This document shows, piece after piece, positions 14,505 to 33,382 of a DNA stretch of 64,000 bases. Made by a program: the position numbers and the translations under genes. Origin of the DNA: Candidatus Latescibacterota bacterium (lineage in GTDB: Bacteria; Latescibacterota; UBA2968); assembly GCA_965207885.1 (NCBI GenBank), contig OZ242311.1, forward strand, positions 4,064,001 through 4,128,000, written 5' to 3'. The first letter of the stretch is position 1, and every line of letters starts with the position of its first letter. The notes under the pieces are model-generated. The model was not told the DNA's origin. It saw only the letters and a program-made list of their open reading frames with translations, and made no database searches.

Positions 14505-14588
14505 TCAGGGTTATAGGAATAACAAATATCAATCACAGGCTTGAACACAAGCCTTAAATACTCCACCAAAAGGGGGAATGCCAAGCCT

Positions 14589-15527
14589 ATGATAGATGAA
14601 CTGAGTAAAATTCGCCATGCGCGTTTTCGTATGGAGATGGTGGCGGTTGACCGCTTAAAATTGCCGTCCTATAAAGGATCGACCTTTCGAGGAGCTTTTG
14701 GGCATGCGTTCAAAAGGCTGGTGTGTGTCAAGCGGGATATGGACTGTTCGACGTGTCTGATCTGCGCCCAGTGCGTTTATTATTATATTTTTGAGACACC
14801 GTTTAGCGGTGGGGAAGATAGCCGAGGTTACGCTTTTGCGCCACATCCGTTTGTGATTGAACCGCCCGGTGAGACGCGCCAGATTTACGAGATGGGCGAT
14901 GATCTACCCGTCGGCCTTGTTCTGGTGGGGCGGGCACTGGATTCTCTGCCGTATTTTATTTATGCCTTTGAAGAAATGGGACATCGGGGCTTGGGTACAG
15001 GGCGCGGCAAAGTTGCGCTGAAGCGGGTTGTTGCGCTGAGTGCGGCGGGCGAACAATGCATTTATGAGGCGGATACGGGCATATTGGATCTGGATTACCC
15101 GGTTTCCACGGGGTTGTCCAGTGGAGAAGAGATCGGGCCACTATTGCATCTGCGGTTGCAGACCCCGCTCCGTCTCAAAACACGGGGGCGCTATGCTTCT
15201 CGACTCGATTTTTCCTTGCTGGTGCGTGCGCTACTGCGGCGCATTTCAGATTTGACGCGCTTTCATTGCGGTGCGGAACTGGAGCTAAATTACGATCAGT
15301 GGATTGCGCGGGCAGAAAAAGTGCAGACTGCGGCGGTGAATACGCGCTGGTACGATTGGGAGCGGTATTCATTGCGCCAGGACCAAAAGATGAAATTGGG
15401 CGGTCTGGTGGGCGATGTGGTTTTTACCGGGGATATAGAGCCGTTCATGCCGCTTTTGCGCCTGGGCGCAGACTTGCATGTGGGCAAGGGCACGGGCTTT
15501 GGCCTGGGGCGTTATGAGATTTTGTGA
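14589..15527 (+). CDS. cas6: CRISPR pre-crRNA processing endoribonuclease Cas6
   Basis: GSTFRGAFG, Cys cluster, PHPFV, TPLRL and C-terminal G-rich loop HVGKGTGFGLG; lies upstream of cas1/cas2. Confidence 0.92.
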   Translation: MIDELSKIRHARFRMEMVAVDRLKLPSYKGSTFRGAFGHAFKRLVCVKRDMDCSTCLICAQCVYYYIFETPFSGGEDSRGYAFAPHPFVIEPPGETRQIYEMGDDLPVGLVLVGRALDSLPYFIYAFEEMGHRGLGTGRGKVALKRVVALSAAGEQCIYEADTGILDLDYPVSTGLSSGEEIGPLLHLRLQTPLRLKTRGRYASRLDFSLLVRALLRRISDLTRFHCGAELELNYDQWIARAEKVQTAAVNTRWYDWERYSLRQDQKMKLGGLVGDVVFTGDIEPFMPLLRLGADLHVGKGTGFGLGRYEIL

Positions 15528-15534
15528 GGGATAG

Positions 15535-17436
15535 ATGGCGGACATACAGGACATGTTGCATCAGGCGCGACAGCATATCGAGGCAGAGGAATTTGATCGC
15601 GCCGAGAGTTTGTGCGCCGATGTACTGGTGACCGATCCGGTTAGCGTGCTGGCGCACCAGTTGATGGCGCGGGTGTGGCTGGGGCGGAACGAACCAGATA
15701 AGGTGCGCGACCGCATCGCGTATCGCGACCAGTTGCCCTGCGATGAACACTATGTCGAATGGGGTCTGATCGCCGAGGAGGTGGAGGCGTTGGAAACCGC
15801 GGTTCAGATCTATGAAGACCTGCTAAAACGGGCACCGGAAAATGGCGTGGTGCTCTACCGATTGGGCCTGATCTGTCTGGAACGCGGCGAGCGGGACAGG
15901 GCCGTGGGCCTGTTGCAGCGCGTCCTGCGGGTGAGTCCAGATCACGCTGCGGCTGCTTTTGAACTGGCGCAATGCTATGTCGAAGACGAGTTGTGGGGGC
16001 TGGCCGCAGATGCCTATGAGCGGGGCCTGGCGAGCGATCCGGATAATGAGGAGGCGCAGACCGCACTTCAGGTGGTGATGGCGCGGATGCGAGAGTTGGC
16101 GCAATTGCCCAGCAGCGAGGTGCCGTCTGGAGAGGGGGCCGCGCGGCGGATGCGGATCTTATTTGCCGGACGGGAAGGGATGCATGCGCGGCAGTGGATA
16201 GATGAGGATGGTCGGGTCGGGTACAGTCCGGTGCAGGAGCCGCTTGCCGATCATCTGCTCTCTCTGCATCTGCAAGGCTCGGCGACTTTGGGCGTGTACC
16301 CGGTGCGGGCAGATCAAACAGTGCTTTTTGGCGTTATTGATATCGATATCCGCAAAAGTGCCCTGAAAGCGGGCGAGGCAGGGCAGTCCGTATCTGATCG
16401 GCTTCAAGAGTTGGTGCTGGCCGACGCCCGGCGACTATCACGGCGGTTCGATGAATTACACCTGCCGGTCTATGTGGAAGACAGTGGATACAAGGGGGTG
16501 CATCTGTGGCTTTTTTTTGCGGAGCCGGTGCCCGCGGCAGTGGTGAAGCGTTTTTTAGAGGCGGTTGTCCAGCGGGTCGGTCCGCCTGGGCCAGAGCTTC
16601 AGTGGGAAGTTTTTCCCAAGCAAGAGCAAGTCGCTGAAGATCAACTGGGCAATTTGATCAAGTTGCCGCTGGGGATTCATCTGAAGACCGGGCGAAGGTG
16701 TTTGTTCACGGATTTGGAAGGGCAAGAATACAGCGACCAGGAAGGTTTCCTCCAGCGCATCCAGCAGGTCGAGCGACAGGCTTTTGAACAGGCGGTGTCC
16801 CGATTGGTGGCGCCACCTGAACAAGGTGGTGTTGCCGGGTCAGTGGAAACACTACGAGAAGCTTTTCCCGAGTACGAAGCCCTTTTCAAGGGGTGTCCGG
16901 TGCTGGTCGCTCTGATGGAAAAAGCCGTGATTACGCATCATCTCACGCACGATGAACGCCTGGTGCTCAAGTGCGTTTTGGGACATTTGGACGATGGTGG
17001 GCACCGGCTGATCCACGGTATTATAGGGCATTGTCTCGATTACTCCGAGAAGATTACGCAGCAGCAGATTGAGCGCACGCCGCCCTATCCCATCAGTTGT
17101 CCCAAGATTCGCCAGCGTCTCCCCGAGGTTACTTCGACGGTCAACTGCGCGTGTGTGTTCGATTTGCCCGAAGGGGGGTATCCTTCTCCGCTGTTGCATC
17201 TCGATGCAACTTTTACCAGAGGTCGGTCACAAAGTGCAGACCGCCACGGGCCTCTGGTGGATAAATACGTGACTTTGCAGCGGGATTACCAGCGGTTGAA
17301 ACGCGAGTTGGCGCAACTCGAAGACGATTTGTACTATGCCATTACCTCGGCAGATCAGGATGAATTGCGGGCCGGTGGATGGATTTTGCGCCGGGATGGA
17401 GACGGGCGTTTCCAGGTGGAGGTTGACCTGGGGTGA
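15535..17436 (+). CDS. CRISPR-associated primase-polymerase (CAPP): TPR + AEP catalytic domain + Cys-rich C-terminal domain
   Basis: N-terminal TPRs; FAGRE..ARQW, GVYP, AEP motif I DID, motif II SGYKGVH, EVFPKQ, GNLIKLPLGIH..TGRR; C-terminal CP...SCPKI...CAC..YPSP; stop overlaps the cas1 start (GTGA). Confidence 0.9.
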   Translation: MADIQDMLHQARQHIEAEEFDRAESLCADVLVTDPVSVLAHQLMARVWLGRNEPDKVRDRIAYRDQLPCDEHYVEWGLIAEEVEALETAVQIYEDLLKRAPENGVVLYRLGLICLERGERDRAVGLLQRVLRVSPDHAAAAFELAQCYVEDELWGLAADAYERGLASDPDNEEAQTALQVVMARMRELAQLPSSEVPSGEGAARRMRILFAGREGMHARQWIDEDGRVGYSPVQEPLADHLLSLHLQGSATLGVYPVRADQTVLFGVIDIDIRKSALKAGEAGQSVSDRLQELVLADARRLSRRFDELHLPVYVEDSGYKGVHLWLFFAEPVPAAVVKRFLEAVVQRVGPPGPELQWEVFPKQEQVAEDQLGNLIKLPLGIHLKTGRRCLFTDLEGQEYSDQEGFLQRIQQVERQAFEQAVSRLVAPPEQGGVAGSVETLREAFPEYEALFKGCPVLVALMEKAVITHHLTHDERLVLKCVLGHLDDGGHRLIHGIIGHCLDYSEKITQQQIERTPPYPISCPKIRQRLPEVTSTVNCACVFDLPEGGYPSPLLHLDATFTRGRSQSADRHGPLVDKYVTLQRDYQRLKRELAQLEDDLYYAITSADQDELRAGGWILRRDGDGRFQVEVDLG

Positions 17437-18431
17437 TTCTCTATGTGACAGATCAGGGTACGGGGGTTTATCGCCGCGGAGAGCGGTTGCAAGTTCGGCG
17501 GCACAAGCAAGTGCTGACCGAGGTGCATTTGCACGATCTGGAACAGGTGGTGCTTATGGGGCAAATCGCGCTTTCTTCTCAGGCGATGAGCACGTTGCTC
17601 GAAAAAGGGGTGGATACGGTTTTTCTGAGTACCAATGGACGGTATCGGGGGCGGCTGGTTGGCCCAGCGCGGCGCAATGTGGTGTTGCGACAAAAGCAGT
17701 TTAAGTGCTATGAGGATGAGCAGTTTCGTCTGCGTGTGGCGCGGGGTGTGGTGGAGGGTAAACTCCGCAATATGCGGACGCTGCTCATGCGTCTGGCGCG
17801 GCGGCGCAAGGTGGATGTGGGCACGGTGGCGCATAGATTGCGCCGGTCAATTCAGCAGGTGGGACAGGCGACCAGTGCCGAGTCTCTGCGCGGGATTGAG
17901 GGGGCGGGCACCGCGGCTTATTTTGGTGTGCTTGGGGCTTTTTTCCCCGAAGGATTCGCGTTTCAGGGGCGCAACCGCCGTCCGCCGAGAGACCCGGCCA
18001 ACGCGCTGCTCAGTTTTGGGTATGCCCTGCTGGGCAATAGCATAGAAGGCGCGATTTATCTGGTTGGTCTCGATCCGTATCTGGGTTTTCTGCATGTGGT
18101 TGATTATGGGCGTCCTTCTCTATCACTGGACTTGATGGAGGAGTTTCGGCCCGTGCTGGTGGATGCGCTGGTGCTGGATTTGATCAACCACAATCGGGTG
18201 CAGAGCGCGGATTTTGAAGCGCGGGATGGGGGCGTATTTTTGCAGGGCGAGGGCCGCAAGCGGTTGATTGAGGGGTACCAGCGACGTCTTGAAGACCGGG
18301 TAACTTATCCCGTGGGGGGCGAGCGGGTGGAGCGGATTTCTTACCGGCGTTGCCTCGAATATCAGGTGCGTCGATTGGCGCGGGTGATTATGGGCGAGGA
18401 GGCTCAGTACAGGGCTTTTCTGGTGCGTTGA
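17433..18431 (+). CDS. cas1: CRISPR-associated endonuclease Cas1
   Basis: LYVTDQG, LRGIEG, RNRRPPRDPANALLSFGY, GLDPYLGFLH, SLSLDLMEEFRP. Confidence 0.97.
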   Translation: MILYVTDQGTGVYRRGERLQVRRHKQVLTEVHLHDLEQVVLMGQIALSSQAMSTLLEKGVDTVFLSTNGRYRGRLVGPARRNVVLRQKQFKCYEDEQFRLRVARGVVEGKLRNMRTLLMRLARRRKVDVGTVAHRLRRSIQQVGQATSAESLRGIEGAGTAAYFGVLGAFFPEGFAFQGRNRRPPRDPANALLSFGYALLGNSIEGAIYLVGLDPYLGFLHVVDYGRPSLSLDLMEEFRPVLVDALVLDLINHNRVQSADFEARDGGVFLQGEGRKRLIEGYQRRLEDRVTYPVGGERVERISYRRCLEYQVRRLARVIMGEEAQYRAFLVR

Positions 18432-18474
18432 GATGTTTGTAACGATCCGCAGGCATGTCCCTGCGGGTGTAAGC

Positions 18475-18522
18475 AGGGATGGACACAGAGAAAAAATGAG
18501 GGATGGACACAGAGAAAAAATG
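18475..18522 (+). repeat. Perfect 24-bp tandem duplication at the cas2 start
   Basis: AGGGATGGACACAGAGAAAAAATG at 18475-18498 and 18499-18522. Confidence 0.9.
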
Positions 18523-18795
18523 TTTGTGACGATTTGTTTTGATATCAGTTCTGACCGCACGCGCCGGCAGGCGACCCGGGTGCTGGAGGCTTATGCAACG
18601 CGGGTGCAAAAGAGTGTGTTCGAATGTCGCATTGCCGAACGGCAATTTGTCGAGTTGCGGCAGCGCATGAGTCAAATTGGTCTGGCTGAAGGCGATCTGG
18701 TGCGCTATTATACGCTGTGTCGCGCATGCGAGCGTAAGATCGAGTTTACCGGCGGTTCTCCCCCGCAGGATGAAAAAGATCATCTGATTGTTTGA
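18520..18795 (+). CDS. cas2: CRISPR-associated endonuclease Cas2
   Basis: MFVTICFDIS..R, RVQKSVFEC, D.VRYY.LC..C; alternative in-frame start at 18433. Confidence 0.95.
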   Translation: MFVTICFDISSDRTRRQATRVLEAYATRVQKSVFECRIAERQFVELRQRMSQIGLAEGDLVRYYTLCRACERKIEFTGGSPPQDEKDHLIV

Positions 18796-19054
18796 TAGCT
18801 GGTCTTTGCGACCCGGATTAGAAAGGGTTTGTCAATATGGCGCATTGAATTTCTACTGCTTTTAATCGGTGGGAATTAGCTACGTCACTTAACCCTATTC
18901 TGGGTCGCGAATTTGTAATTTCTTGTCCTACAATAGATTAACAGAAAGGGACTTCTATGATTGAAGAAAAATGGATGGATAAACGCCTGTCAATATGGCC
19001 TGAGTCGCAAAAGCACCTCAAACAGACTGTGACTCAACAAGTTAGAAAGGAGGG
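18796..19054 (+). promoter_or_regulatory. CRISPR leader
   Basis: AT-rich non-coding stretch between cas2 and repeat 1; GCGACCC/GGGTCGC inverted motifs; TGTCAATATGGC direct repeat at 18830 and 18988. Confidence 0.8.
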
Positions 19055-19248
19055 ATTGGAAGGAATTGACCCGCTCATAGAGGATTGAAACTTAATATAC
19101 CTGTTGGCAGGTTATCGGAGTGGTCATTTGACGAATTGGAAGGAATTGACCCGCTCATAGAGGATTGAAACTTAATATACGTTTCATGGATCTTCCGGTC
19201 GCCGGCGTAGATTGGAAGGAATTGACCCGCTCATAGGGGATTGAAAAC
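19055..19248 (+). CRISPR. Short CRISPR array: 3 repeats, 2 spacers
   Basis: Repeat ATTGGAAGGAATTGACCCGCTCATAGAGGATTGAAAC (37 bp) at 19055-19091 and 19135-19171; variant ...ATAGGGGATTGAAAAC at 19211-19248; spacers of 43 and 39 nt. The ATTGAAAC 3' end gives + orientation. Confidence 0.96.
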
Positions 19249-19269
19249 TTCGTCATCAAGGGATATGTC

Positions 19270-20991
19270 GTGCAGATCGCGGAACCCGTATTGAAAGCCA
19301 TCCAGGACAGAGGCAGACGAGGATTGCCCCTTGAGAATATTTATCGACACCTCTACAACCCGGACCTCTTTTTACGCGCTTATGGACGGCTGTATCGAAA
19401 AGCTGGCGCGACCACACAGGGCATTACAAAAGAGACCACAGATGGCATGTCTATGGCGAAGATCAATGCCCTCATCGAGGCATTCCGCTGCGAGCGGTAT
19501 CAATGGACGCCTGTTAAGCGCATCTATATTCCCAAAAAAAATGGGGGGCGGCGTCCGCTCGGCATACCGGTTTGGTCTGATAAACTGGTGCAAGAAGTTA
19601 TGCGATCTTTGTTGGGCGTCTATTATGAACCCCAATTTAGTGACCTGTCCCACGGCTTTCGGCCTCAACGGGGCTGCCATTCTGCACTTGCGGAAATTTT
19701 GAGATGGAAAGACATAGACTATTTTATCGAAGGCGATATCAAAGCCTGTTTTGACAGTATTGATCACGAATGTCTGCTGTCTATTTTGAAGGAGAAAGTC
19801 CGCGATGATCGGTTTATCGACTTAATTGGGGATTTGCTCAAGGCCGGATGCGTCGCGTACGGGCGTTACGAATCTACTCCGAGTGGTACGCCACAAGGCG
19901 GTCCCATTAGTCCACTTCTCGCAAACGTTTATCTCGACAGGTTGGATGAGTTCGTCGAAAATACGCTTGTGCCTCTTTACACAACGGGCGAGAAACGCAT
20001 AGAGGCGAGTTGGAAGACGCCAGAGGAGTTGCAGAGGGTTCTGAAGATATTGGATACGCAGGGTCCCGATTTTAGACGTATTCGCTATATCCGATACGCC
20101 GATGATTTTTTGATCGGTTTTACCGGGCGAAAGGCAGAGGCTAAAGAGATCAAACAATGTCTCAAAGAATTTTTGCAAGAGACGCTGAAATTGGAACTGT
20201 CAGAGGACAAAACCTCAATTACCCACAGCCGCAAAGAGACAGCACACTTTCTCGGATACGAGATCAAGAATCTGAATGGGTCAACGCAAAATACACTGAG
20301 CCTGAGTGTGCCGAAAAAAGCCGTGAAAGAGAAGTGTAGCTTGTATCAAAAACGCGGGCGTGTCACATACTGTGCCGAACTGCTGCATGACAGCGATTGG
20401 GAAATCATAAGTCTTTTTCAGAGTCGATATATCGGATATGTGCAATACTATATTTTCGCACACAATGTCCATATCTTAAACGTATTGCGCTGGGTGATGA
20501 GTGCGTCTTTGCTCAAGACGCTTGCGAAAAAGCATAAGACACATGTGAATCAACTTATGAAGCAGTATAAAGCGACTATCCAGACGCCTTATGGCCCGCT
20601 GACGTGTTTGGAGATGCCTGTTTTGTGTGAAGGTGGGCAATTGAGGACGGCGCGTTTTGGTGGCTTCTCTCTCAGGCCGAGGGAAGGCATACCCCTTGCA
20701 GACCGCGACCCAAACAGGGAGATGCGGTGCAAGGGGATAGAACTGATCCAGCGCTTGCTGTCAAACCAGTGCGAATGCTGCGGCGCAACAGGCCAGGTGG
20801 AAGTGCATCATGTCCGAAAACTTGTCCATAGAGAAGGGCAAGTATCAGAGCACACATGGATGCGAGACATGGTTACACGAAAGCGAAAAACCCTTATCGT
20901 GTGCAAAACATGCCACCAGGCAATCCATTCTGTGACAAAAACAAGGAAGAAAAACAGGTATCGGGGAATGCACGCAACACAACGCCAGTAA
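19270..20991 (+). CDS. Group II intron-type reverse transcriptase/maturase with domain X and HNH endonuclease (LtrA/ML-like), apparently lacking intron RNA
   Basis: RPLGIP, SHGFRP..GCH, EGDIKACFDSIDH, GTPQGGPISPLLANVYL, YIRYADDF, LSEDKT, FLGY; domain X (YVQYY, SLLKTLAKKHK); CECCG..VEVHHVRKL..CKTCHQAIH. Confidence 0.93.
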   Translation: MQIAEPVLKAIQDRGRRGLPLENIYRHLYNPDLFLRAYGRLYRKAGATTQGITKETTDGMSMAKINALIEAFRCERYQWTPVKRIYIPKKNGGRRPLGIPVWSDKLVQEVMRSLLGVYYEPQFSDLSHGFRPQRGCHSALAEILRWKDIDYFIEGDIKACFDSIDHECLLSILKEKVRDDRFIDLIGDLLKAGCVAYGRYESTPSGTPQGGPISPLLANVYLDRLDEFVENTLVPLYTTGEKRIEASWKTPEELQRVLKILDTQGPDFRRIRYIRYADDFLIGFTGRKAEAKEIKQCLKEFLQETLKLELSEDKTSITHSRKETAHFLGYEIKNLNGSTQNTLSLSVPKKAVKEKCSLYQKRGRVTYCAELLHDSDWEIISLFQSRYIGYVQYYIFAHNVHILNVLRWVMSASLLKTLAKKHKTHVNQLMKQYKATIQTPYGPLTCLEMPVLCEGGQLRTARFGGFSLRPREGIPLADRDPNREMRCKGIELIQRLLSNQCECCGATGQVEVHHVRKLVHREGQVSEHTWMRDMVTRKRKTLIVCKTCHQAIHSVTKTRKKNRYRGMHATQRQ

Positions 20992-20996
20992 TCCAT

Positions 20997-21020
20997 GTAG
21001 GGGCGAGGCATGCCTCGCCC
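20997..21020 (+). repeat. GTAG-type REP-like hairpin
   Basis: GTAG-GGGCGAGGCA/TGCCTCGCCC perfect palindrome; related copy at 33255. Confidence 0.7.
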
Positions 21021-21081
21021 GTGCCCTTCATTGCGGTGTGGTATTGCGTTGCACCACCCAGGCTGAACATAAGGAGAATTC

Positions 21082-21228
21082 ATGGTCAAACAGATATTAT
21101 TATGTACCGTCGGAGGCTCTCATCAACCGATTCTCGAAGCAATTAAATCATCGTCACCGTGCCATGTCTGTTTTTTTGCACGGACCGCCTCCTTCACATC
21201 CCATAACCAGCGAAGGAACAATCCATGA
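21082..21228 (+). pseudogene. Truncated, frameshifted paralog of the N-terminus of the downstream TIGR02710-like CARF gene
   Basis: RBS AAGGAG, then MVKQILLCTVGGSHQPILEAIKSSSPCHVCFF versus MSETILLCTVGGSHQPILAAIETNSPKLVCFFCT; one more T in the T7 run would give CFFCTD. Confidence 0.82.
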
Positions 21229-22487
21229 GCGAAACCATCCTTCTTTGCACCGTTGGCGGCAGCCACCAGCCTATCTTGGCGGCCATTGAAACAAACAGTC
21301 CGAAACTCGTTTGCTTCTTCTGTACCGAAGGACAGGCTGGTTCCGAGGTTCAAGTAATCGGCGAGGGCAAAGTTATCAAGGACAAACTGCAAGACAGCAA
21401 AGCAACATTGCCCAATATCCCCACCCAAGCGCGAGCGCAGGGTTGGAATGGTACCTATAAGATAAAGATCGTCCCTCCAGACGATTTGGATGGGGCCTTC
21501 TTTGTTATCCGAAATACGATCCTAAAATTGGCCCATAAGTATCCCAATGCCGAATTGGTGGCTGACTACACCGGTGGCACAAAGACGATGACGGCGGCCT
21601 TGGTCAGTGCTGTGTTGGATACTGAGCGCGTCGAGCTCCAACTCGTTGCTGGCGAACGCAGAGATCTCATACAAGTGATTCCGGATACCGAATTGTCGGT
21701 CGTCGCCAGCGTGACCCGATTGCTGATTGATCGTGACATCAAGCAATTTCTGGCCGCTTGGCGTCATTTCGGCTACCACGAAGCAGCAGAAGGGCTGAAG
21801 AAAGTGCGTATCGCGGCTGATTCGCCCGACTTTGAGCGTTTGCACCAAGCATATATGTTGAGTCAGGGCTTAGCATTGTGGGATAGATTCGATCACGCTG
21901 GCGCACTTGAAAAGATTCAACCGCTGGAGCAAATTAAAGCTGCCTATCCGTATATGATGCCGACGCTGGGACAGCTTAAGGCAGACCGAGAACAAGCTCT
22001 CTTATTCGACCTCTGGTTAAATGCCGAGCGGCGTGCGGCCCAGGGTCGCTTTGACGATGCGATTGCGCGGTGGTATCGCATGATGGAGTGGACAGCCCAA
22101 TGGCAACTCCGAACGAAACTCAACGCCGATACCGGGGACTTTTCAGGCGATTTGCTGCCGAAGCAGGTTCAGGCGGCCCCGGATTCAGATGGTAAAATTA
22201 AAATTGGGCTTTGGAAGGCATGGCAAGTCGTAAAATACCGTTGCGAACTATCGGGTCCTGCTCAGGACTTCATCAAAAAGCACGGATCAAAGCTCCTCGA
22301 TTTACTCGAGATTCGCAACAATTCGATACTGGCTCACGGTTTTTGTCCTGTGAGTTCTTCGAACTGGCAAGAGGTGCATAATTGGACACAAGATAAATTC
22401 CTGCCCGTTCTGCGTACCCTGGCCGAAGAAGTGGGCTTGAAAAGCGAGCCGAAACAACTCCCGACCGAATTTCCAGAGAGCATCTGA
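21225..22487 (+). CDS. CRISPR-associated CARF-HEPN effector (TIGR02710/Csm6-like)
   Basis: CARF motifs CTVGGS.QP and DYTGGTKTM; RFDDA.AR.YR; HEPN motif RNNSILAHG. Confidence 0.88.
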   Translation: MSETILLCTVGGSHQPILAAIETNSPKLVCFFCTEGQAGSEVQVIGEGKVIKDKLQDSKATLPNIPTQARAQGWNGTYKIKIVPPDDLDGAFFVIRNTILKLAHKYPNAELVADYTGGTKTMTAALVSAVLDTERVELQLVAGERRDLIQVIPDTELSVVASVTRLLIDRDIKQFLAAWRHFGYHEAAEGLKKVRIAADSPDFERLHQAYMLSQGLALWDRFDHAGALEKIQPLEQIKAAYPYMMPTLGQLKADREQALLFDLWLNAERRAAQGRFDDAIARWYRMMEWTAQWQLRTKLNADTGDFSGDLLPKQVQAAPDSDGKIKIGLWKAWQVVKYRCELSGPAQDFIKKHGSKLLDLLEIRNNSILAHGFCPVSSSNWQEVHNWTQDKFLPVLRTLAEEVGLKSEPKQLPTEFPESI

Positions 22488-22641
22488 ATTGTGTCCGACA
22501 ATCACAGCCTTGCTGATACGTTTGTACGAGGCGGATTGTCACTGATGAGACACAGAATGGTGTGAATGGTAGAGATATATTGTCAGGGCACAAGTAGCCG
22601 TGCTGGCAGATTTATTTTGACAAAAATGAGAGGGTAATCAG

Positions 22642-24246
22642 ATGGCAACAGGCAAAATCATGAATTGGAAAGGAAAATACGGATTTATTGAAAATGATGC
22701 TGGAGGGCAAAATGTTTTCTTACACATCAATGAAGTTGATCAAGACGATAGAGGATTCTTGACTAAGGGCACAAGAGTTGATTTCGATATACAAGAAGTG
22801 CCTCAAGGATTGGCAGCAAATAATGTTCGTTTCTTGAAATTTCACAATCCATATACCTTTGTCCCTACCCCTCCGCGTCAGGATGCAATAAAAGCGGGTG
22901 GGTTTGCTGGCGATTTTGATCCCTTGGAGTGTGGTCTCAGCCATGCATGTCTTGATCCGGATCTATGGACAGGACATCTGCCAATCAAGCTGACCACGGT
23001 CACACCCCTGGTATTGCCGAAAACTGATGGTGAAGAACGTTTGTCAACTGAGCACCAAACTTATGATGTCCTCAACTATTTGCCGGAATCGTCCCTGCGC
23101 GGCATGTTGCGAAGTGCCTACGAAGTGGTGACGAACTCGCGCTATAGTTGTTTTAGCAACGATGACCGATTGAAGTTTCGTTTAGGTCGAGAAAAGAGAA
23201 CATATGAAAAGAGTCCCAAAGACCTTCTCGACTTCTCACTAAGATCAGCGGATAAGATGAGTAAGCTGTCTCCCGCGGATCGTTTGTTCGGGTGGGTACC
23301 TCAGCAATCCGGTAGCGACCAGGGGTACAAGGGCCGCATACGGGTCGTTTGTGAAGATGATGCACGATCTGAGATTATCCAACACTTTGATGGTAAAGAC
23401 TTGCCATTGACGATCCTCGGAGAGCCAAAACCCGCACAAGGCCGTTTTTATGTTGCTAAAGATAAAAAAGGTACGCCGCAAGAAGATGGCATTAGCAAGG
23501 AGCAAGCTGGCTACAGTGGAGGTAAGGGCTTACGAGGTCGGAAGCAATACTGGCACCATAAAGGGCTGGAAGCGGGTCAGGCACGAGACTATTGGAAATC
23601 GTCAGTAGATGACCGAACGCAGCAACAAAACAATGGTCGGTATCAAGAATATCGCCGTCCCAATAAAAATGGAGAGCCACAAAAAGATGCTCAAAACCGC
23701 AGCATTACCGGATGGATTAAGCCAGGTACGGTTTTTAAGGCATCCCTATATGTACAAAATCTGCAAACTGAAGAAATTGGTGCATTGCTTTGGCTGCTAT
23801 CGCTTCCCTCAGACCATTACTTCCGGCTGGGATATGGCAAGCCATTGGGTTTTGGCAGCGTGAGGATAGAGGTTGATGAGGAGCGATGTGTAAATGGATG
23901 TCTGCCACTCGGCACTGGCAAAGATTGGAAAAGCTACTATGCAACCTTTTATACTTCCCCACCGGCAACACTAAATGAGGACCAACGAAAGGGCTGTATT
24001 CAAAAATTTAAGGCCAGTATGGTAGCTGCGTACGATTCAAAACATTTTAATAATCTACCTTTTATCAGCGGATTTCTGAAAGTTCTAAAGGGTCCAAAAA
24101 AAGATGCACCCATTCACTATCCACGGCTGGAATACAAACCCAATCCCAAAGGCGAGAATTTTCGATGGTTCGTCGCAAATGAAAAAGGTAAAAGACTTGC
24201 GCTTCCAGCGGTTACAGCGAAGAAGGGGCTACCTTATCAACCCTGA
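22642..24246 (+). CDS. Type III-D Cas7-family RAMP (TIGR03986-like) with N-terminal cold-shock domain
   Basis: MATGKIMNW..KYGFI...VFLH cold-shock RNP motifs; FHNPYTFVP, SSLRGMLRSAYEVVTNS, SPADRLFGWV, LRGRKQYWHH, LGYGKPLGFGS. Confidence 0.88.
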   Translation: MATGKIMNWKGKYGFIENDAGGQNVFLHINEVDQDDRGFLTKGTRVDFDIQEVPQGLAANNVRFLKFHNPYTFVPTPPRQDAIKAGGFAGDFDPLECGLSHACLDPDLWTGHLPIKLTTVTPLVLPKTDGEERLSTEHQTYDVLNYLPESSLRGMLRSAYEVVTNSRYSCFSNDDRLKFRLGREKRTYEKSPKDLLDFSLRSADKMSKLSPADRLFGWVPQQSGSDQGYKGRIRVVCEDDARSEIIQHFDGKDLPLTILGEPKPAQGRFYVAKDKKGTPQEDGISKEQAGYSGGKGLRGRKQYWHHKGLEAGQARDYWKSSVDDRTQQQNNGRYQEYRRPNKNGEPQKDAQNRSITGWIKPGTVFKASLYVQNLQTEEIGALLWLLSLPSDHYFRLGYGKPLGFGSVRIEVDEERCVNGCLPLGTGKDWKSYYATFYTSPPATLNEDQRKGCIQKFKASMVAAYDSKHFNNLPFISGFLKVLKGPKKDAPIHYPRLEYKPNPKGENFRWFVANEKGKRLALPAVTAKKGLPYQP

Positions 24247-24290
24247 AGCAATGCCGTTCGCAATTCCCAGACAAAGAGGAGACAATAAAT

Positions 24291-25382
24291 ATGGGAACAC
24301 AACTTATTTTTACTGTTGGAACCAATCCACTACCGATATGGGTGGCGTGGCATCATTTGAAAGACAAACTATCAGAGCCTGTTCAGGTTCGACTTGTGCA
24401 TACAGCGGACACAGAAGATGAAAAAGATCGGCTAAAAAAGTATTGTCACGGTGCGGCCTTTCTTGATCCGATTCAAACGTCCGACGGCGACCCTCGTACT
24501 GTACGTGAGGATATCAGGACTATCGCTGATGGCCTCTCAGACGAGACCAACCTTCTGCACATTCACTACACTGGCGGTACCAAGGTGATGGCCGTTGAAA
24601 CTGTCGCCGCCCTTGAAGCCACTTTACCGAAAAATATCCACTTGGATACCTCCTATCTGGACCCACGCGCCACATCAGGTCCCGCTATCGTGAATCGGGC
24701 TGGGAAAACTTGGGTCCGAGATACTCGTAAGAATATTACTGCTGATCTTGCTCGTATCGCTCTCCTCAACGGTTTTACTCTCGGGCCGTTTAAACACAAA
24801 TATTGGGATAAAGAGGCCAACTGCTATGAAACGGACGACTGTCCGGCTCCTGGAATACCCACTCAAAATCAATTGGACAAGGGCAGAAAGGCTATTACAG
24901 GCGGTGGGCGTATCACATGTTACAAACTCTTAGAACACGGTGCCTATGCCGCATTTAAGGATGCATTGGAGGAGGTTTCTACGAGCAATTCAAATCGTAA
25001 TAACTATAAACTTTTCCACAATGTGTATGTCCGACGTATAAGAGCATCACAGAGTGCAAAGCCCTTCGAGCTTGATGTAGTAGCAGTACTGGGGTATCAG
25101 ATTGTCGTTGTTTCATGTACTCTTGATGGGAGTCATGACAAGATAAAACAAAAAGGTATGGAGGCCATTTTGCGAGCAAGGCAACTCGGTGGTGATGAAG
25201 CGCGGGCCATTGTTTTGTGTAGTGCTCACCAGAATGATGCTAAACTCATTGAAGATGAGTTAAGGGATGAAATGGGTAGTGCGAGCGAGCCTTTACAAGT
25301 TTGGGAAAGGAATAGGTGGCCTATGCCTATGTTGTCAGATGCGTTTTATCAATATCTGCGTAATGACCTGCATTGGAAGTGA
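24291..25382 (+). CDS. CARF + PD-(D/E)XK-like nuclease effector (Card1/Can2/DUF1887-like)
   Basis: VGTNPLP and HYTGGTKVM (CARF); C-terminal FELDVVAVLGYQIVVVSCT...E...RARQLGGDEAR. Confidence 0.82.
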   Translation: MGTQLIFTVGTNPLPIWVAWHHLKDKLSEPVQVRLVHTADTEDEKDRLKKYCHGAAFLDPIQTSDGDPRTVREDIRTIADGLSDETNLLHIHYTGGTKVMAVETVAALEATLPKNIHLDTSYLDPRATSGPAIVNRAGKTWVRDTRKNITADLARIALLNGFTLGPFKHKYWDKEANCYETDDCPAPGIPTQNQLDKGRKAITGGGRITCYKLLEHGAYAAFKDALEEVSTSNSNRNNYKLFHNVYVRRIRASQSAKPFELDVVAVLGYQIVVVSCTLDGSHDKIKQKGMEAILRARQLGGDEARAIVLCSAHQNDAKLIEDELRDEMGSASEPLQVWERNRWPMPMLSDAFYQYLRNDLHWK

Positions 25383-25396
25383 GTGGGGATATACTT

Positions 25397-27031
25397 ATGT
25401 CAAATTCTCTTTATATGGGTCAATGTGTTGCAGTCTTCGGTACTGCGAGTCTTCAGCGATACATCTTTCAGAGCAATCGACTGAAAGAGAATATCGGTGC
25501 GTCCTATCTCGTAAAATACTGGCTTGACGAGGGCTTGGTTGAGGCCATAAAGCAGTCTGGCTGTACGGTTGATACGACTGTGTGGGATGAGTACAAAACA
25601 AATCCCTCAATGTCTCGGCCTGCAAAGCCAGTGGACATATCGAAAGATGTCAATTTCATCTATGTCGGTGGGGGTAATGCTGCGTTGCTGTGCAAAAGCC
25701 AGGAGACTGCTAAAGATGTTGTCAAAATATGGAGCCACAAGCTACTCGAACATGCACCTGGACTCCGGGTGGCCGTTGGGTATGCGGATGTTGAGAACTC
25801 ATTGGCTGAGGCATATCGTTCCGCGTTAGAAAACCTGTCACAATGCGAGGAAGCATTGCCGTTTGGGGACACCTTGTACAGCTTACCCGTTGTTCGCACT
25901 TGCACGACTACTGGGCTTCCTGCGAGCGTACCCAGCAAAGAAGAGAACAATGAGGAGGAGTGGATATCGCAGTCTGCGTCGAGCAAGCGAAATCAAGTCG
26001 GCTCTGAACGCAAGTCAGGTGCTGCCCAAAGGGATATTAGACGCGAATTCAAATCGGTTCTGCAAAGAGGTCAAAACTTTGCCATTGAACTCGACAAACT
26101 GGGTGGGCGTAAAGGAGAATCGCATATTGCTGTCGTGCATGCTGACGGCAATGGAATGGGCAAGCATCTTATAGATGTGGTGAACAGTGCAGAAGATGAT
26201 GAGGAATTTCTCCATCACATCCGAGCATTTTCGGCCTCTGTGTCGCGTCTGTCCCAGAGTGCCCTACAGGAGACATTGCAATATCTACAGGAAGAGTTGC
26301 CGAACCTGAAAGGGGATTTGTCGCTGGGAGAAGAAAAAATTTTTCCTTTGCGTCCTATCGTGTACGGAGGCGATGATTTGACATTTGTATGCGATGGTCG
26401 CGTGGGTCTCGATCTGGCGGCCTTCTATTTGAAGGCGTTTTCCAAAGGCAAGATCAAAGTCCGTGGTAAGGATGAACCCGTTGATGCCTGTGCGGGGGTA
26501 GCCATTGTGCCTACAAAATTTCCCTTTGCCCGCGCGTATCATTTTGCTGAAGAACTCTGCGGATTGACCAAGTCATACCTTCGTGAGAGAGATTTAACTG
26601 GCAGTTGGCTGGATTTTCAGATTATCCAGGAAGGTATCACCCGATCCATTTCGGCACTGAGAGCCGCACAGTATCGTAGCTTTGAGGGACAAACACTGCA
26701 TCAGCGTCCTTATCAGGTACCGGAAAAATGGGACGTTTTTGTTGAAATTTTGAAGGAATTTCAAGCGTCGTGGCCCCGCAACCGTGCCAAAGGGCTTTTG
26801 CAGGCTCTAACGCAGGGACCTGCGGCAACGCAACGCTTCGTTGAGGGCGCACGGTGGCGTGATGTGAAGTTACCATCGTCTTCGGTAAGTGGTACAGGTT
26901 GGACGGGTGGAGATCCTCCTGATCGCACCACGCCGTATTTCGATCCGCTCGAAACACTTGATTTCTATCTGGAAGTGAAGAAACCAGCAAAAAATGGCGA
27001 GAAAGCAGGTAAGGAGATCAAGAATGACTGA
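25397..27031 (+). CDS. cas10: Type III-D Cas10 (Palm cyclase, no HD domain)
   Basis: QRYIF.SNRLKENIGAS, YVGGGNA, VHADGNGMG, VYGGDDL, KFPFARAY; short, with no N-terminal HD domain. Confidence 0.92.
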   Translation: MSNSLYMGQCVAVFGTASLQRYIFQSNRLKENIGASYLVKYWLDEGLVEAIKQSGCTVDTTVWDEYKTNPSMSRPAKPVDISKDVNFIYVGGGNAALLCKSQETAKDVVKIWSHKLLEHAPGLRVAVGYADVENSLAEAYRSALENLSQCEEALPFGDTLYSLPVVRTCTTTGLPASVPSKEENNEEEWISQSASSKRNQVGSERKSGAAQRDIRREFKSVLQRGQNFAIELDKLGGRKGESHIAVVHADGNGMGKHLIDVVNSAEDDEEFLHHIRAFSASVSRLSQSALQETLQYLQEELPNLKGDLSLGEEKIFPLRPIVYGGDDLTFVCDGRVGLDLAAFYLKAFSKGKIKVRGKDEPVDACAGVAIVPTKFPFARAYHFAEELCGLTKSYLRERDLTGSWLDFQIIQEGITRSISALRAAQYRSFEGQTLHQRPYQVPEKWDVFVEILKEFQASWPRNRAKGLLQALTQGPAATQRFVEGARWRDVKLPSSSVSGTGWTGGDPPDRTTPYFDPLETLDFYLEVKKPAKNGEKAGKEIKND

Positions 27032-29396
27032 GTATTTTTTGCAAATCACGCTGCAATCGCCGCTGACCTCTGCCGCAGGTGAGGGACGTGTGGGCGTGGT
27101 TGACCGTGACATAGCTTTTGATGACCTCGGGCTACCTATTCTCCCCGGCAGGCGACTCAAAGGGCTGTGGCGCGAAGCCTATCGCGATGTCGCCGATGCG
27201 TGGGCTTTATACGGTGAATCTTCAATACCGGTAGAGCATATTTTCGGCGAGTCAGGACAGGGAGATGCTTGCATGTTTGTTGCCAATGCTGAATTGCAAG
27301 AGGCGTCTTCTTTAAGAGAATGGTTGAGATATTTACAACATGATAAAAAATTTCACCTTGACGATGTTGTGGAGCACTTTGCCTCTGTGCGTGCCCAGAC
27401 CGCGATTGACCGCAGGACTGGCGCAGCACTTGATAATACGCTCCGTCTCACCCGTACCTTGAAAGCAGATCTGGTATTTCGAGCGCGTGTGCGCTTCTTT
27501 GAGGCTCCAGATGATGAGTTGCTCAGTGCCCTATCTCTGGGATCCGCGGCTTTGCAACACATGGGAACAGCGCGGACCCGCGGTCTCGGCAAGGTCCGTT
27601 GTCGTTTGCTTGTACGCGATGCGAGTGGGCAATGCCGGGACTTGACAGACGAAGTCCTGAGCAAAAATGCGCTTCCTTCAATTACCCAAACGGCCTCCAA
27701 TCAACCAGCCCAAACCTCAAAGGCTCATGTGACTTCCTCATCTCGTTCAACTTGTACGGTCCCCACCCACATATTGCGCTATCGGATTGTGTTGACAGCA
27801 CCAGCAGTTATCCCAACAGTAGATGGCGACCCGAATACTGTTGTGACCCGGAGAGATATTCCCGGAAGCAATATCTGGGGGGCTGCTGCCTATCGTTACC
27901 TGAGCCAAGCGAATCATACGCCTGAAGATGGTGCGTTTCGCCACGCCTTTCTCGATGGGGGCTTGCGATTCTTGGCGGCTTACCCAGAAGCAGATGATCC
28001 CGAAGTGTACAATGGAATGCCTCAACGCCTGATTCCCATTCCCCACTCAATACGCAAATTTAAGGAAGGCGAAGAACTGATAGATTTTGTGGAATCATCA
28101 CCAGGGGAGGATCCAATAAAGCGTCTTGATCGTCGATACGCTATCATTAGTGGAGTCAGTTTGAAAACACAAGCTGTCAAGACGGAATTGAATTACCATC
28201 ACGCCCGCGCCAGAGATCGTCGCATAGGTCGTGCTCTTGGTGCAATGGTTCCAGATGGCGGTGCCTTCTTCACGTATGAGGCCATCGAGGCTGGACAGTC
28301 GTTTCAAGGGGCTATCCTGGGTTCCAAGGATGATCTAAAAGCTCTGCAATCCTATTTAAAAGGGGGGCAGATAAGAATAGGACGGTCGCGTAGCGCACAG
28401 TACGGTGAGGCGGAATTTGAATGGATTGATGGTGCCCCAAAGGAATTGAGCAGGTTTGTTGAGTGGGATGGATTCGTTGAACAGCAGCCCGCCAGTGTCC
28501 CAAATTCTGGTGCGTGTCTTATCATCACCACCTTATCGCCCTTGTTGACCGTCAACGATTATGGGCATCCGGAGGCGCGCTTTCCCGAGCGTGAGTTGGC
28601 TAACGCTCTGGGGCTGGAGACTTCGGATCTCAGACTATCGCGCAGTTATACCCGCACAGATTTGATTGGTGGATATAATTCCCACCTGCGCCTCCCGCGT
28701 CAGCAATGGCCCGCTATCGCCTCTGGTAGTGTTTTTGTGTTTAAGGCTGAAAAAACACTTGATCAGGAACGTCTCTTGCAATTAGAACACAATGGCCTGG
28801 GGTTACGGAAAGGAGAAGGGTATGGTCGCATTGCTGTCAATCGACAGGGTAGCCTCGGTTTGTCAGGCTGCGAAGAAACCCAACTCGACAATCTCGATAG
28901 GCTACCCGATTCGCCAAACTCAGCGATGCCACAGAGTGTCCATGATCTGATATATGGCGTCGTGAGATCGCGTTGCCTAACTGAGATGCAGCAGCGTGCT
29001 ATAACTATCGCCAGGTCGAACGATAATATCCCAAAAAATGCCCTTCTTGGACGGATGCGTTTGTTTCTTCAACAGAACTCACGCGACGAAAGTTTGAGAC
29101 AACTACGTGATCCTGCAAAGGACCAACTAACGAAATATCAGATTGACATGAGTGGTTTCGGTATAACGGATGATTGGTCGCCGCAAATGACGATGTATGA
29201 ATTGTTCAAGAAGGCCTGGACAGAACCGGAGTCTCTAACGCGACAAATGATTGAAAGTCATGTCCATGAGGATATTGTCGAAGATGCCGACATGCGCCAG
29301 ACTCTAATTAACAAACTGGTTGCAGACGATAGCGCGGAGATGTGTACAGTGTTTCTCGATCACCTGCTTACAGCACTGCGCCGTAAATCAAAATAG
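27024..29396 (+). CDS. csx10: Cas7-Cas5(Csx10)-Cas11-like fusion of type III-D/III-Dv
   Basis: N-terminal Cas7 (GEG...DRDI, LPGRRLKG, TAID..TG, G..RTRGLG); middle Cas5 RAMP (IPGS..WG, IGRSRSAQYG, GLGLRKGEGYG); helical C-terminus consistent with Cas11. Confidence 0.85.
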   Translation: MTEYFLQITLQSPLTSAAGEGRVGVVDRDIAFDDLGLPILPGRRLKGLWREAYRDVADAWALYGESSIPVEHIFGESGQGDACMFVANAELQEASSLREWLRYLQHDKKFHLDDVVEHFASVRAQTAIDRRTGAALDNTLRLTRTLKADLVFRARVRFFEAPDDELLSALSLGSAALQHMGTARTRGLGKVRCRLLVRDASGQCRDLTDEVLSKNALPSITQTASNQPAQTSKAHVTSSSRSTCTVPTHILRYRIVLTAPAVIPTVDGDPNTVVTRRDIPGSNIWGAAAYRYLSQANHTPEDGAFRHAFLDGGLRFLAAYPEADDPEVYNGMPQRLIPIPHSIRKFKEGEELIDFVESSPGEDPIKRLDRRYAIISGVSLKTQAVKTELNYHHARARDRRIGRALGAMVPDGGAFFTYEAIEAGQSFQGAILGSKDDLKALQSYLKGGQIRIGRSRSAQYGEAEFEWIDGAPKELSRFVEWDGFVEQQPASVPNSGACLIITTLSPLLTVNDYGHPEARFPERELANALGLETSDLRLSRSYTRTDLIGGYNSHLRLPRQQWPAIASGSVFVFKAEKTLDQERLLQLEHNGLGLRKGEGYGRIAVNRQGSLGLSGCEETQLDNLDRLPDSPNSAMPQSVHDLIYGVVRSRCLTEMQQRAITIARSNDNIPKNALLGRMRLFLQQNSRDESLRQLRDPAKDQLTKYQIDMSGFGITDDWSPQMTMYELFKKAWTEPESLTRQMIESHVHEDIVEDADMRQTLINKLVADDSAEMCTVFLDHLLTALRRKSK

Positions 29397-29415
29397 CAAA
29401 ATAAGGACGAATAGC

Positions 29416-30870
29416 ATGGCGAATACTAAGACCTCCAAGATTAAAGACACCATTGTGCGTCGTTTATATGCGCGAGGGAAGTGGAAGCTGGACAGTGTGG
29501 CGCACTTTGGTGGAGATGAAACAGGTATAGCAGATATGTGTCTCCTGCGGGATGCGGAAGGAAAACCCTTTATTCCAGCCGCATCTATCGCTGGCGTAGC
29601 GCGGAGTTTTCTGGCCCGGGTGAGTAAGCCCTGGACGAAATACCAAAAGGGGGATGAGGGCAAAATACTCAAACAGCTTTTTGGCGGAGCGGGCGAAAAG
29701 GATACTATGAGTGCCTTAATTGTTGCCGATGCTGCTTGCAAAAATTCCCAAACGTCAATCCGCGATGGCGTGCGCGTGGATACTCAATCGGGTTCTGCCG
29801 CTGAGGGGACAAAGTTCGATGTGGAAGTTGTCGAGCGCGGGGCTGAGTTTGAGTTGCGTCTGGAGTGCGTTATCCGTGATGGAGACGATAGCCAAGGATT
29901 GGAGAAGTTATTTTTAGCCCTCTTACATGGATTCAAAGCAGGTGAGATCCGATTGGGCGCACGTACCCGTCGGGGCTATGGACGCGGCAAGGTAGCGTCC
30001 TGGAAAATACGCGATTTGAAGATGAACGATCCAGAGGATGTTATGGCCTGGCTACGCGATAAGGTCTGTTCTCGTCCCGCGAGTGATTTGACACCATGTC
30101 CTTTGCCATCTGATCAACGACAATACTTCCGCCTTGAAGCAGATTTTATTCTGCGGACGTCTCTGTTAATCCGCAGTTCACCTTCTGATCCAAAATCTCC
30201 AGACATGGTTCATCTGCACTCTGCTGGAGAGCCTGTTGTTCCCGGTACATCCTTTGCCGGTGCATTTCGACATCGCGCATCCCTGATCGCAAGTACCATT
30301 GGCTGGCCTGAGGATTCGGTGAGTGAAATATTCGGCCCTGTGCATGAACAAGATGTCAAAGACCCACAAAAAGATTTGTGGGCAAGTCGGGTATGGATTG
30401 AGGAAAAGCTGGTGAAGAATGTGGAATCGCGGTGGCAGGATCGCGTTGCTATTGATCGGTTTACCGGAGGTAGTTTGCAGAGTGCCTTGTTTAACGAAAA
30501 ACCCATTTTCCCACAGAAATCTACGCCACATCTCAAGTTAAAACTGACGTTAGAAGAACCGGATGATGCGGAAATCGGCTTGTTGTTCTTAACTTTGCGC
30601 GACTTCTGGAATGGACATGCCGCTCTGGGCGGAGAAACGAGCAATGGTCGCGGTACTCTCCAGGGTTTTAAAGCTGAGTTGCAATTGAAGCGGCGCAAAT
30701 CGTCAAAGGCTGAGTGGGAGTTTTCGCAGTATAATAGCGGTATGACTCTTGTTGGGTGTAGTGGTGATGCTTCATTCTTCGAATGTTGCGTACAAAAAGC
30801 CCAATCGCCTTCTAAACATCCCGATGGATCACGGCGGCCTAAAAAAGAAAAGGTGACCACCGATGACTAA
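29416..30870 (+). CDS. Tandem Cas7-Cas7 RAMP (Csm3-like, type III-D)
   Basis: Two RAMP units: PFIPAASIAG...LGARTRRGYG and PVVPGTSFAG...RVAIDRFTGG...LGGETSNGRG. Confidence 0.88.
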   Translation: MANTKTSKIKDTIVRRLYARGKWKLDSVAHFGGDETGIADMCLLRDAEGKPFIPAASIAGVARSFLARVSKPWTKYQKGDEGKILKQLFGGAGEKDTMSALIVADAACKNSQTSIRDGVRVDTQSGSAAEGTKFDVEVVERGAEFELRLECVIRDGDDSQGLEKLFLALLHGFKAGEIRLGARTRRGYGRGKVASWKIRDLKMNDPEDVMAWLRDKVCSRPASDLTPCPLPSDQRQYFRLEADFILRTSLLIRSSPSDPKSPDMVHLHSAGEPVVPGTSFAGAFRHRASLIASTIGWPEDSVSEIFGPVHEQDVKDPQKDLWASRVWIEEKLVKNVESRWQDRVAIDRFTGGSLQSALFNEKPIFPQKSTPHLKLKLTLEEPDDAEIGLLFLTLRDFWNGHAALGGETSNGRGTLQGFKAELQLKRRKSSKAEWEFSQYNSGMTLVGCSGDASFFECCVQKAQSPSKHPDGSRRPKKEKVTTDD

Positions 30871-33244: not shown

Positions 33245-33254
33245 AAATTGGTCC

Positions 33255-33280
33255 GTAGGGGCAGGTCTTGTGCCTGCCCG
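33255..33280 (+). repeat. GTAG-type REP-like hairpin
   Basis: GTAGGGGCAGG-TCTTGTG-CCTGCCC; related to the 20997 copy. Confidence 0.6.
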
Positions 33281-33382
33281 TCGTCCGTAGGGCTGGCATT
33301 TGACAATGTCTTTGGGCAGATATATCTTTTGAAATCTACCTCTGTGTTTGCCACATGGATTTCTATAGAGAGGATGTGGTCC

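Follow-up and report, generated by a model that had tools for sequence, protein, structure and literature searches.

A ribozyme-less group II intron-type reverse transcriptase conserved behind CRISPR arrays in Latescibacterota

In a 64,000-nt stretch of a Candidatus Latescibacterota genome (assembly GCA_965207885.1, contig OZ242311.1, positions 4,064,001 to 4,128,000; hereafter the window), a gene for a group II intron-type reverse transcriptase (RT) stands directly downstream of a CRISPR array. The protein is of intron-protein ancestry, is encoded without any intron RNA and as a single copy, keeps the same position behind the array in six species, is under selection and retains an intact YADD motif together with its HNH/zinc motifs. 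It is probably, though by no means certainly, a domesticated intron protein that was independently recruited as a CRISPR-associated RT and helps to acquire spacers from RNA, a role in adaptation that we infer from genomic context only. Latescibacterota genomes are denoted here by G-numbers (G000, a single contig of 6.2 Mb, is the window's own) and loci by L-numbers, and the ribozyme-less, CRISPR-linked RT proteins are referred to as the clade.

An orthologue search of 61 relatives, and then of 168 genomes of the phylum, recovered the gene in five further species: G014 (88% identity) and G020 (87%), which belong to the window's genus, and G143 (70%), G125 (65%) and G136 (64%), which belong to a genus of another family. 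For residue comparisons these six genomic sequences were joined by 19 metagenomic clusters (60-90% identity), giving 25 clade members that were set against 101 intron proteins.

Intron-type protein and absence of intron RNA

The open reading frame (ORF) begins with GTG and runs for 573 codons with no internal stop; its product matches the Pfam families RVT_1, Intron_maturas2 and AI2M-like HNH in that order (Table 1), and its alignment to LtrA (PDB 5g2x) extends over residues 22-552 (E 2.1e-92). These results bear out a preliminary description of this DNA, which had read here an uninterrupted protein with RT, domain X and HNH/zinc endonuclease, 21 nt from the last repeat; the range it gave (19249-21020) includes the gene proper but also the 21-nt spacer in front of it and a hairpin behind it. 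The TIGR04416 score is 277.3 bits, under the equivalog cut-off of 300. LtrA scores 314 bits, against 52 for the solved Cas6-RT-Cas1 fusion (7kft) and 40 for the RT of a CART-CAPP protein (8bgj; CART stands for a CRISPR-associated RT and CAPP for a CRISPR-associated primase-polymerase), and this much higher score to LtrA than to CRISPR RTs fits an origin separate from the classical CRISPR-RT lineages. The clade protein is 50-54% identical to working intron proteins. Across the 25 clade members and 101 intron proteins 133 residues are invariant, including Y276 A277 D278 D279 (YADD) and every Cys and His of the HNH/zinc motif CxxC..HH..CxxCHxxxH, which aligns with LtrA and is also unchanged among the six orthologues. 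Specific to the clade are one 16-residue deletion (after residue 244), lying between RT motifs 4 and 5, and seven fixed substitutions, among them W198G; since LtrA has W at position 198 and is longer at the deletion site, these are derived characters.

At none of the six clade loci does the ORF lie in an intron domain IV, with domains I-III on its 5′ side and V-VI on its 3′ side. A search of the whole window with Rfam at the gathering threshold returned three tRNAs and nothing of intron RNA, and at E ≤ 10 over positions 17000-23000 it returned seven weak matches, none to an intron family. No intron match was obtained at any of the six loci at the Rfam gathering threshold, at E ≤ 10 within ±1.5 kb or with nhmmer profiles built for the 5′ part and the 3′ part of introns. 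The Rfam negative is informative, because the same genome carries two true introns that score: RF00029 (domain V/VI) gives 68.3 bits beside each of them, ~10 nt past the match to their protein, which is 54% identical to the window RT. In a scan of eight loci, both true introns included there also matched RF00029. Similarly, RF00029 directly follows the ORF in 19 of the 20 closest metagenomic relatives (46-53% identity), and nhmmer shows the twentieth to be an intron too; a metagenome scan for further clade members gave 80 loci, all of them ordinary introns. The preliminary description had seen no intron domains around the ORF and had named a domain V/VI covariance match beforehand as a possible refutation; no such match lies near the ORF, and the controls match.

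The Rfam D1-D4 models missed the true introns of this lineage too, so lineage-specific nhmmer profiles were built from 700 nt 5′ of 21 and 300 nt 3′ of 20 related intron ORFs. Controls from outside the training set were found: in L022 the 5′ profile matched at 2e-58 and the 3′ profile at 3e-16, and in L008 the 3′ profile matched at 1e-36. At the CRISPR-linked loci the profiles found nothing save ~30 nt just 5′ of the start codon in one orthologue. In a 5′ alignment of the six clade loci, a remnant in G004 (see below) and eight introns, similarity to the introns stops ~15-20 nt 5′ of the start codon; a motif conserved among the introns 35-65 nt upstream is missing from the clade, and in the window the 21-nt junction is the sole stretch 5′ of the ORF that still resembles intron sequence. 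On the other side, the RT stop codon is followed by the next gene after 13-21 nt in G125, G014 and G020.

Two candidates for residual intron RNA were rejected. The hairpin after the stop codon was ruled out as a domain V, as it has no Rfam intron match and is a dispersed palindromic repeat, and the 770-nt (G125) and 422-nt (G136) gaps before the RT gene were ruled out as intron 5′ remnants, both being negative with nhmmer. The G125 gap holds a small ORF and a degenerate repeat, and the G136 gap a candidate PHP-family gene fragment, so recognised by eye.

These searches bear on two readings in which the gene would still serve introns. The first, that it sits in a mobile intron that is still complete but has a ribozyme too aberrant for detection, draws on the failure of the D1-D4 models to see the 5′ parts of the lineage's true introns. 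Yet the window leaves 21 nt on the 5′ side and three orthologues leave 13-21 nt on the 3′ side, and the lineage profiles recover 5′ and 3′ RNA in every control and at none of the six loci. Every genome has one clade copy, always at the same kind of site, whereas the true intron of G000 is present in two copies of equal score and identity to the query. We regard this reading as almost certainly wrong. The second makes the protein a trans-acting maturase or mobility factor that serves group II introns at other sites of the genome. All intron-protein domains are indeed conserved, X included, and introns are at hand in some genomes, with two true copies in G000 and one domain V match each in G020 and G125. 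However, no RF00029 match was found in G014, G143 or G136 (150 of 300-353 candidates scored per genome), and the introns resident in G000 have an intact protein of their own, only 54% identical to the RT. The X domain doubles as the polymerase thumb, so its conservation is expected in any active RT, and we consider a trans-acting role highly unlikely.

The six ORFs are all open over 552-573 codons at a dS of 0.2 to >2. Pairwise Nei-Gojobori dN/dS is 0.11-0.19 for the RT gene, compared with 0.08-0.11 for cas1, 0.09-0.12 for CAPP and 0.08-0.14 for cas2, and by segment (N-terminal, RT, X, D and endonuclease (En)) it is 0.03-0.26 where dS is unsaturated, X giving 0.06-0.24. Purifying selection acts on every domain of the RT ORF, the endonuclease among them. 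A functionless, decaying intron remnant kept by chance would be in keeping with the commonness of truncated introns, with the 68 codons retained in G004 and with the small rearrangements of the window locus, but six intact ORFs at this divergence, their low dN/dS and catalytic residues invariant in 25 members leave it barely tenable: the gene is not a decaying remnant, it is a conserved and selected gene. The preliminary description had proposed to look for neutral evolution and for a want of conserved CRISPR linkage, and on both counts the outcome went its way.

In a quick tree of 56 rows the 25 clade proteins split from the sampled intron proteins with an SH-aLRT of 94, and the six CRISPR-verified members are spread over all four subclades; in a careful tree of 42 rows the same split is supported at 99/100. 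Identity within the clade falls to ~60% and dS is saturated. An independent, recent domestication that kept its nuclease had been suggested at the outset: the independence is supported, the retained nuclease stands, and "recent" holds only relative to the classical CRISPR RTs. The clade fits a model of independent recruitment of intron RTs, at an early stage.

Linkage to the CRISPR cassette and proposed role

In all six clade members with readable context, from two families, the RT gene lies 3′ of a CRISPR array and on the same strand. The orthologous arrays have 32 (G014), 18 (G020), 32 (G143), at least 16 (G125) and 55 repeats (G136), and CAPP-cas1-cas2 stands directly 5′ of the array in G000, G014, G020, G143 and G136; in G125 the array opens the contig and CAPP-cas1 lies on another. 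The last repeat and the start codon lie 21-22 nt apart in the window, and this spacing is 69 nt in G020, 175 in G143, ~210-276 in G014, 422 in G136 and 771 in G125. The window RT gene begins 474 nt 3′ of cas2, with only the leader and the array between. A type III-D module lies beyond the RT gene in G000, G014, G020 and G136, with cas10 only 26-29% identical between them, and the Cmr (III-B) genes of G125 are downstream and those of G143 upstream. As the effector neighbours vary, the constant unit is the adaptation cassette with its array and the RT gene.

Several observations weigh against the reading favoured here. The RT is an accessory: four of the ten orthologous cassettes (G016, G001, G018 and G138), which have cas1, large arrays and a CAPP that is 78-82% identical, are without it, no clade RT was found anywhere in these four genomes (single contigs, 94-99% complete), and their arrays look active, with 25 to >170 repeats. 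The CAPP tree unites the ten cassettes (100/100) and is compatible with both loss and non-gain of the RT. Among 483 spacers from 11 arrays, lengths are alike whether or not the RT is present, no spacer is common to genomes and, in a comparison with the loci, none matches the RT or an intron. Unlike described CRISPR RTs, the gene is parted from cas1 by cas2, the leader and a whole array of 3 to 55 repeats, and it is neither adjacent nor fused to cas1. The window array is down to three repeats, far fewer than the 18-55 of the orthologous arrays, and its locus carries small insertions, hence the window copy may be less active than its orthologues. The RT has roughly twice the dN and twice the dS of cas1 when the same pairs of genomes are compared, so the history of the RT may not be strictly shared with cas1. 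Finally, a very distant intron outgroup places the root inside the clade in the careful tree, with weak support (80/61, 93/76); because outgroup rooting is unstable, monophyly, and with it the apparent single origin of the clade, rests on the common deletion, the substitutions and the 5′ breakpoint, and we claim neither a rooted position nor a donor intron class.

The absence from four cassettes, the place beyond the array and not beside cas1, and the likeness of spacers with and without the RT could also suit a protein that was domesticated for some other host or defence function, such as DNA-break repair in the manner of G2L4 or an abortive-infection type RT, and that travels with the cassette in a defence island. 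Repair and defence are indeed known roles of group II-like (G2L) RTs that have no intron RNA, and one in four of these RTs is located close to defence genes (PMC8632793, PMC12337344, both in part). Against this, the sole constant neighbour in six species is the array of one cassette, on the same strand and with the RT downstream, what lies beyond it varies, and the 68-codon remnant in G004 is the only clade member that was seen apart from a CRISPR array. The retained En domain and YADD also differ from G2L4, which we take to have YIDD and no En domain. We judge such a function unlikely.

The G004 remnant (L049 10001-10204) comprises the first 68 codons of the RT only, 91% identical, and neither cas genes nor an array lie near it. 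About 3 kb downstream stands a 70% identical orthologue of the window's FGE-sulfatase-type gene, and the site looks like a deleted CRISPR locus in synteny with the window.

For the favoured role in spacer acquisition from RNA we propose the following course of events. An LtrA-like intron (RT-X-D-En type) would once have landed at the trailer end of an array; its ribozyme would then have been lost, on the 5′ side to within ~15-20 nt of the start codon and on the 3′ side as far as the stop codon, and the protein gene would have been kept as an accessory of a mobile cassette, (cas6)-CAPP-cas1-cas2-array-RT, that serves III-D and III-B effectors. Transcribed by read-through from the array, the RT may reverse-transcribe RNA protospacers or extend on RNA integrated by Cas1-Cas2, with CAPP priming, making the second strand or filling gaps and Cas1-Cas2 integrating the product, by which an RNA-sensing type III system would take spacers from transcripts. 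The D/En module probably binds DNA and nicks or trims it, by analogy with target-primed reverse transcription, and this is the most speculative step. A complex prediction for Cas1 (10-row alignment) and the RT (33-row alignment) scored 0.00 and gave no answer.

A bolder version, which we put forward tentatively and think improbable, is that the clade represents a young fifth intron-derived CRISPR-RT lineage that still works much as in retrohoming: HNH would nick repeat DNA and prime cDNA at the leader-repeat junction after Cas1-Cas2 and TPR-CAPP have placed an RNA or RNA/DNA protospacer. If true, target-primed reverse transcription would have been turned to writing immune memory. As to how the clade arrived, spacers that copy an intron homing site might draw introns into arrays.

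A true intron copy does interrupt the array of a second CAPP-cas1-cas2 locus in the same genome (G000:C1 ~5762670-5767500; L081 1672-6500; RF00029 68 bits). It lies on the opposite strand, 3-4 nt after a repeat and inside a spacer, and the remaining 33 nt of the interrupted spacer are identical at 24 of 33 positions to the 5′-exon flank of the other intron copy, and the spacer therefore resembles an intron homing site. This intron in a spacer shows a concrete route for intron protein genes into arrays.

Organisation of the window locus

Table 1. Features of the CRISPR locus in the window, with domains of the RT protein.
Feature	Position in window	Strand	Evidence and remarks
cas6, CRISPR RNA (crRNA) endoribonuclease	14541..15527	+	Pfam CRISPR_Cas6, E 9.8e-20; 87-90% identical orthologues in the same position in G014 and G020
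CAPP, CRISPR-associated primase-polymerase with N-terminal TPR domain	15535..17436	+	NCBIfam NF040561 PrimPol_Msp, 365.2 bits (cut-off 200)
cas1	17433..18431	+	Pfam Cas_Cas1, E 4.1e-101
cas2	18520..18795	+	ATG at 18520 is the likely true start
CRISPR leader, 259 nt	18796..19054	+	Preceded by cas2 and followed by the first repeat; some of its motifs recur in G125
CRISPR array, 3 repeats and 2 spacers	19055..19248	+	Repeat family D1 (repeat search); weak Rfam CRISPR-DR matches
Repeats of 37/38 nt	19055-19091, 19135-19171, 19211-19248	+	Last one degenerate
Junction with ribosome-binding site, 21 nt	19249..19269	+	Between last repeat and GTG
Ribozyme-less group II intron-type protein (RT-X-D-En), 573 aa	19270..20991	+	GTG start
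RT domain	~19528-20265	+	Pfam RVT_1, residues 87-332, E 2.8e-32
X/maturase domain	~20335-20568	+	Pfam Intron_maturas2, residues 356-433, E 5.9e-11
HNH/zinc endonuclease domain	~20770-20916	+	Pfam AI2M-like HNH, residues 501-549, E 4.1e-12
REP-like dispersed palindromic hairpin	20997..21020	.	8-bp GC stem; no Rfam intron match
CARF protein N-terminus, truncated duplicate (pseudogene fragment)	21083..21229	+	56% tblastn match to CARF N-termini in L054 and L055
CARF-HEPN ancillary nuclease, TIGR02710 family	21225..22487	+	NCBIfam TIGR02710, 174.4 bits (cut-off 83.9); Pfam Csm6 HEPN
Type III-D effector module	22642..31414	+	CSD-RAMP (TIGR03986), 363-aa gene without family, cas10, csx10, csx7, csx19 (Pfam/NCBIfam)

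The cassette opens with cas6 and CAPP (Table 1). CAPP also matches the Pfam AEP-TOTE and TPR families, has 78-93% identical orthologues in nine other genomes and is of TPR type A1 by NF040561, its gene overlapping or abutting cas1. A gene with TPR and AEP domains in one operon with cas1-cas2, at a type III locus, is the make-up of a CAPP-TPR adaptation module (Zabrady et al. 2021), the class definitions being taken from PMC8211822 (in part). Orthologous cas1 and cas2 genes abut, and in the window an insertion of ~88 nt (18433-18522) lies between cas1 and the probable cas2 start; at its start the initial ~14 nt of cas2 are repeated, and it closes with a perfect 24-nt tandem duplication (18475-18522) spanning both the ribosome-binding site and the ATG. 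In the longer cas2 ORF, which begins at 18433, the Pfam Cas2 match begins at residue 30 and the alignments to orthologues begin at residues 29-30.

The repeats end in ATTGAAAC on the + strand, and array transcription therefore runs towards the RT gene. No promoter-like or terminator-like site was seen in the window between the array and the RT gene (the 21-nt junction), which is compatible with read-through transcription. Both spacers share their first 9 nt, TTAATATAC (19092-19100 and 19172-19180), which suggests a duplicated repeat-spacer unit or a longer effective repeat. Among the related arrays, that of G138 (L080 7112-19984) has at least 171 repeats; overlaps among several of its spacers suggest that one target was sampled repeatedly.

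The hairpin behind the RT gene is a GC-rich 24-nt element that begins with GTAG and gives 15 strand-matches at ~9 places in the genome; five copies in G000 are exact and the reversed control gave none, and this GTAG palindrome makes up a REP-like family within a Latescibacterota genome, so that the label of GTAG REP hairpin first given to it was a reasonable one.

Fragments of CARF N-termini lie at module borders, after the RT gene in the window (Table 1) and 5′ of CAPP in G136 (L056 19057-19110), and may be scars of recombination between cassettes and effector modules. In the effector module a cold-shock domain is fused N-terminally to the RAMP of the TIGR03986 family (22642-24246), and in G143 one is fused C-terminally to Cmr6 (L054 2819-3901), an unusual RNA-binding addition to effector subunits. 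Further 3′ of the module, an AAA ATPase carries a C-terminal PD-(D/E)XK nuclease domain (33248-34960); a 68-74% identical copy, in two ORFs, lies directly after the RT gene in G136 (L056 7887-9109).

Relation to known systems

How CRISPR systems came to own RTs, by a single or by multiple origins, has been argued from deep, saturated trees. In this clade an early stage of recruitment is still legible, at 50-54% identity to intron proteins, with one deletion, seven changed residues and the endonuclease kept, and natural controls are at hand in the RT-less sister cassettes and in a true intron of the same lineage that sits in a spacer of another array in the same genome. The clade is tractable for asking which minimal changes turn a mobile-element protein into an immune accessory, whether RT, primase-polymerase and Cas1-Cas2 are able to cooperate as separate proteins and what an HNH nuclease could add to spacer capture, and a full-length RT with a nuclease, working with an integrase, may be of interest to developers of RNA-recording tools.

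To our knowledge, classical CRISPR RTs lack an endonuclease, RT-Cas1 and Cas6-RT-Cas1 fusions lack the D/En module, and class F intron proteins are without an En domain. Thirteen RT-CRISPR clades related to introns, which form four lineages and mostly adjoin cas1 or are fused to it, and two clades of other origin are described (PMC8632793, PMC6013744, both in part), and RNA spacer capture by CRISPR RTs has been shown experimentally (PMC8632793, in part). The window RT lies, like these, inside a CRISPR-cas locus near cas1-cas2, without intron RNA and with conserved linkage. It has in common with the RT-Cas1 and Cas6-RT-Cas1 fusions (Marinomonas mediterranea, Thiomicrospira; PDB 7kft) a group II RT ancestry and the type III link, to which the fusions add RNA spacer capture (PMC8632793, in part), but those proteins are fused and far more diverged (7kft 52 against LtrA 314 bits), whereas the window RT is a separate gene past the array.

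RT-CAPP fusions, stand-alone CARTs near cas1-cas2 and a TPR-class CAPP that binds Cas1 are known (PMC8211822, PMC10415136, both in part). The CART-CAPP fusions (Caloramator australicus; RT-CRISPR clade 12) resemble the window in uniting RT and primase-polymerase in a type III adaptation module, and so does the CAPP-TPR operon of Marinitoga piezophila (same sources, in part). In the fusions, however, a short RT is joined to an apparently inactive primase-polymerase, and in the window the TPR-CAPP and the intron-type protein are both full and have a gene each. We found no paper combining Latescibacter, CRISPR and reverse transcriptase; the supplementary tables on RT-CRISPR clades may list relatives.

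LtrA of the Lactococcus Ll.LtrB intron is alike in its domain order RT-X-D-En, its YADD and its HNH/zinc motifs; it differs in lying inside domain IV of a ribozyme and in being mobile, whereas the window gene has no ribozyme, is single-copy and carries the ~16-residue deletion and seven substitutions. The G2L RTs (for example G2L4) are likewise intron-related, domesticated and without intron RNA, but their definition excludes a CRISPR link, and G2L4 serves to repair double-strand breaks (PMC8632793, PMC12337344, both in part); the window clade shares with them the missing intron RNA, and every one of its loci that was read is CRISPR-linked.

The nearest precedent is the CRISPR-linked RT of Methanosarcina (branch 11 of Silas et al. 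2017; clade 1 / lineage 4 of Toro et al. 2018). Like the window RT, it falls among true intron RTs, has no intron RNA, is unfused to cas1, is interpreted as an independent later recruitment and lies in a type III locus (PMC5513706, PMC6013744, both in part). It differs in being archaeal, in adjoining cas6 with no cas1 in the locus and in being attributed to a class F intron (PMC6013744, in part). The window clade, known from six species genomes and 19 metagenomic protein clusters, is bacterial and LtrA-like, has kept D/En and stands after the array of a CAPP-cas1-cas2 cassette, and thus differs from that precedent in host phylum, donor type, position and partner, the last being a separate TPR-CAPP.

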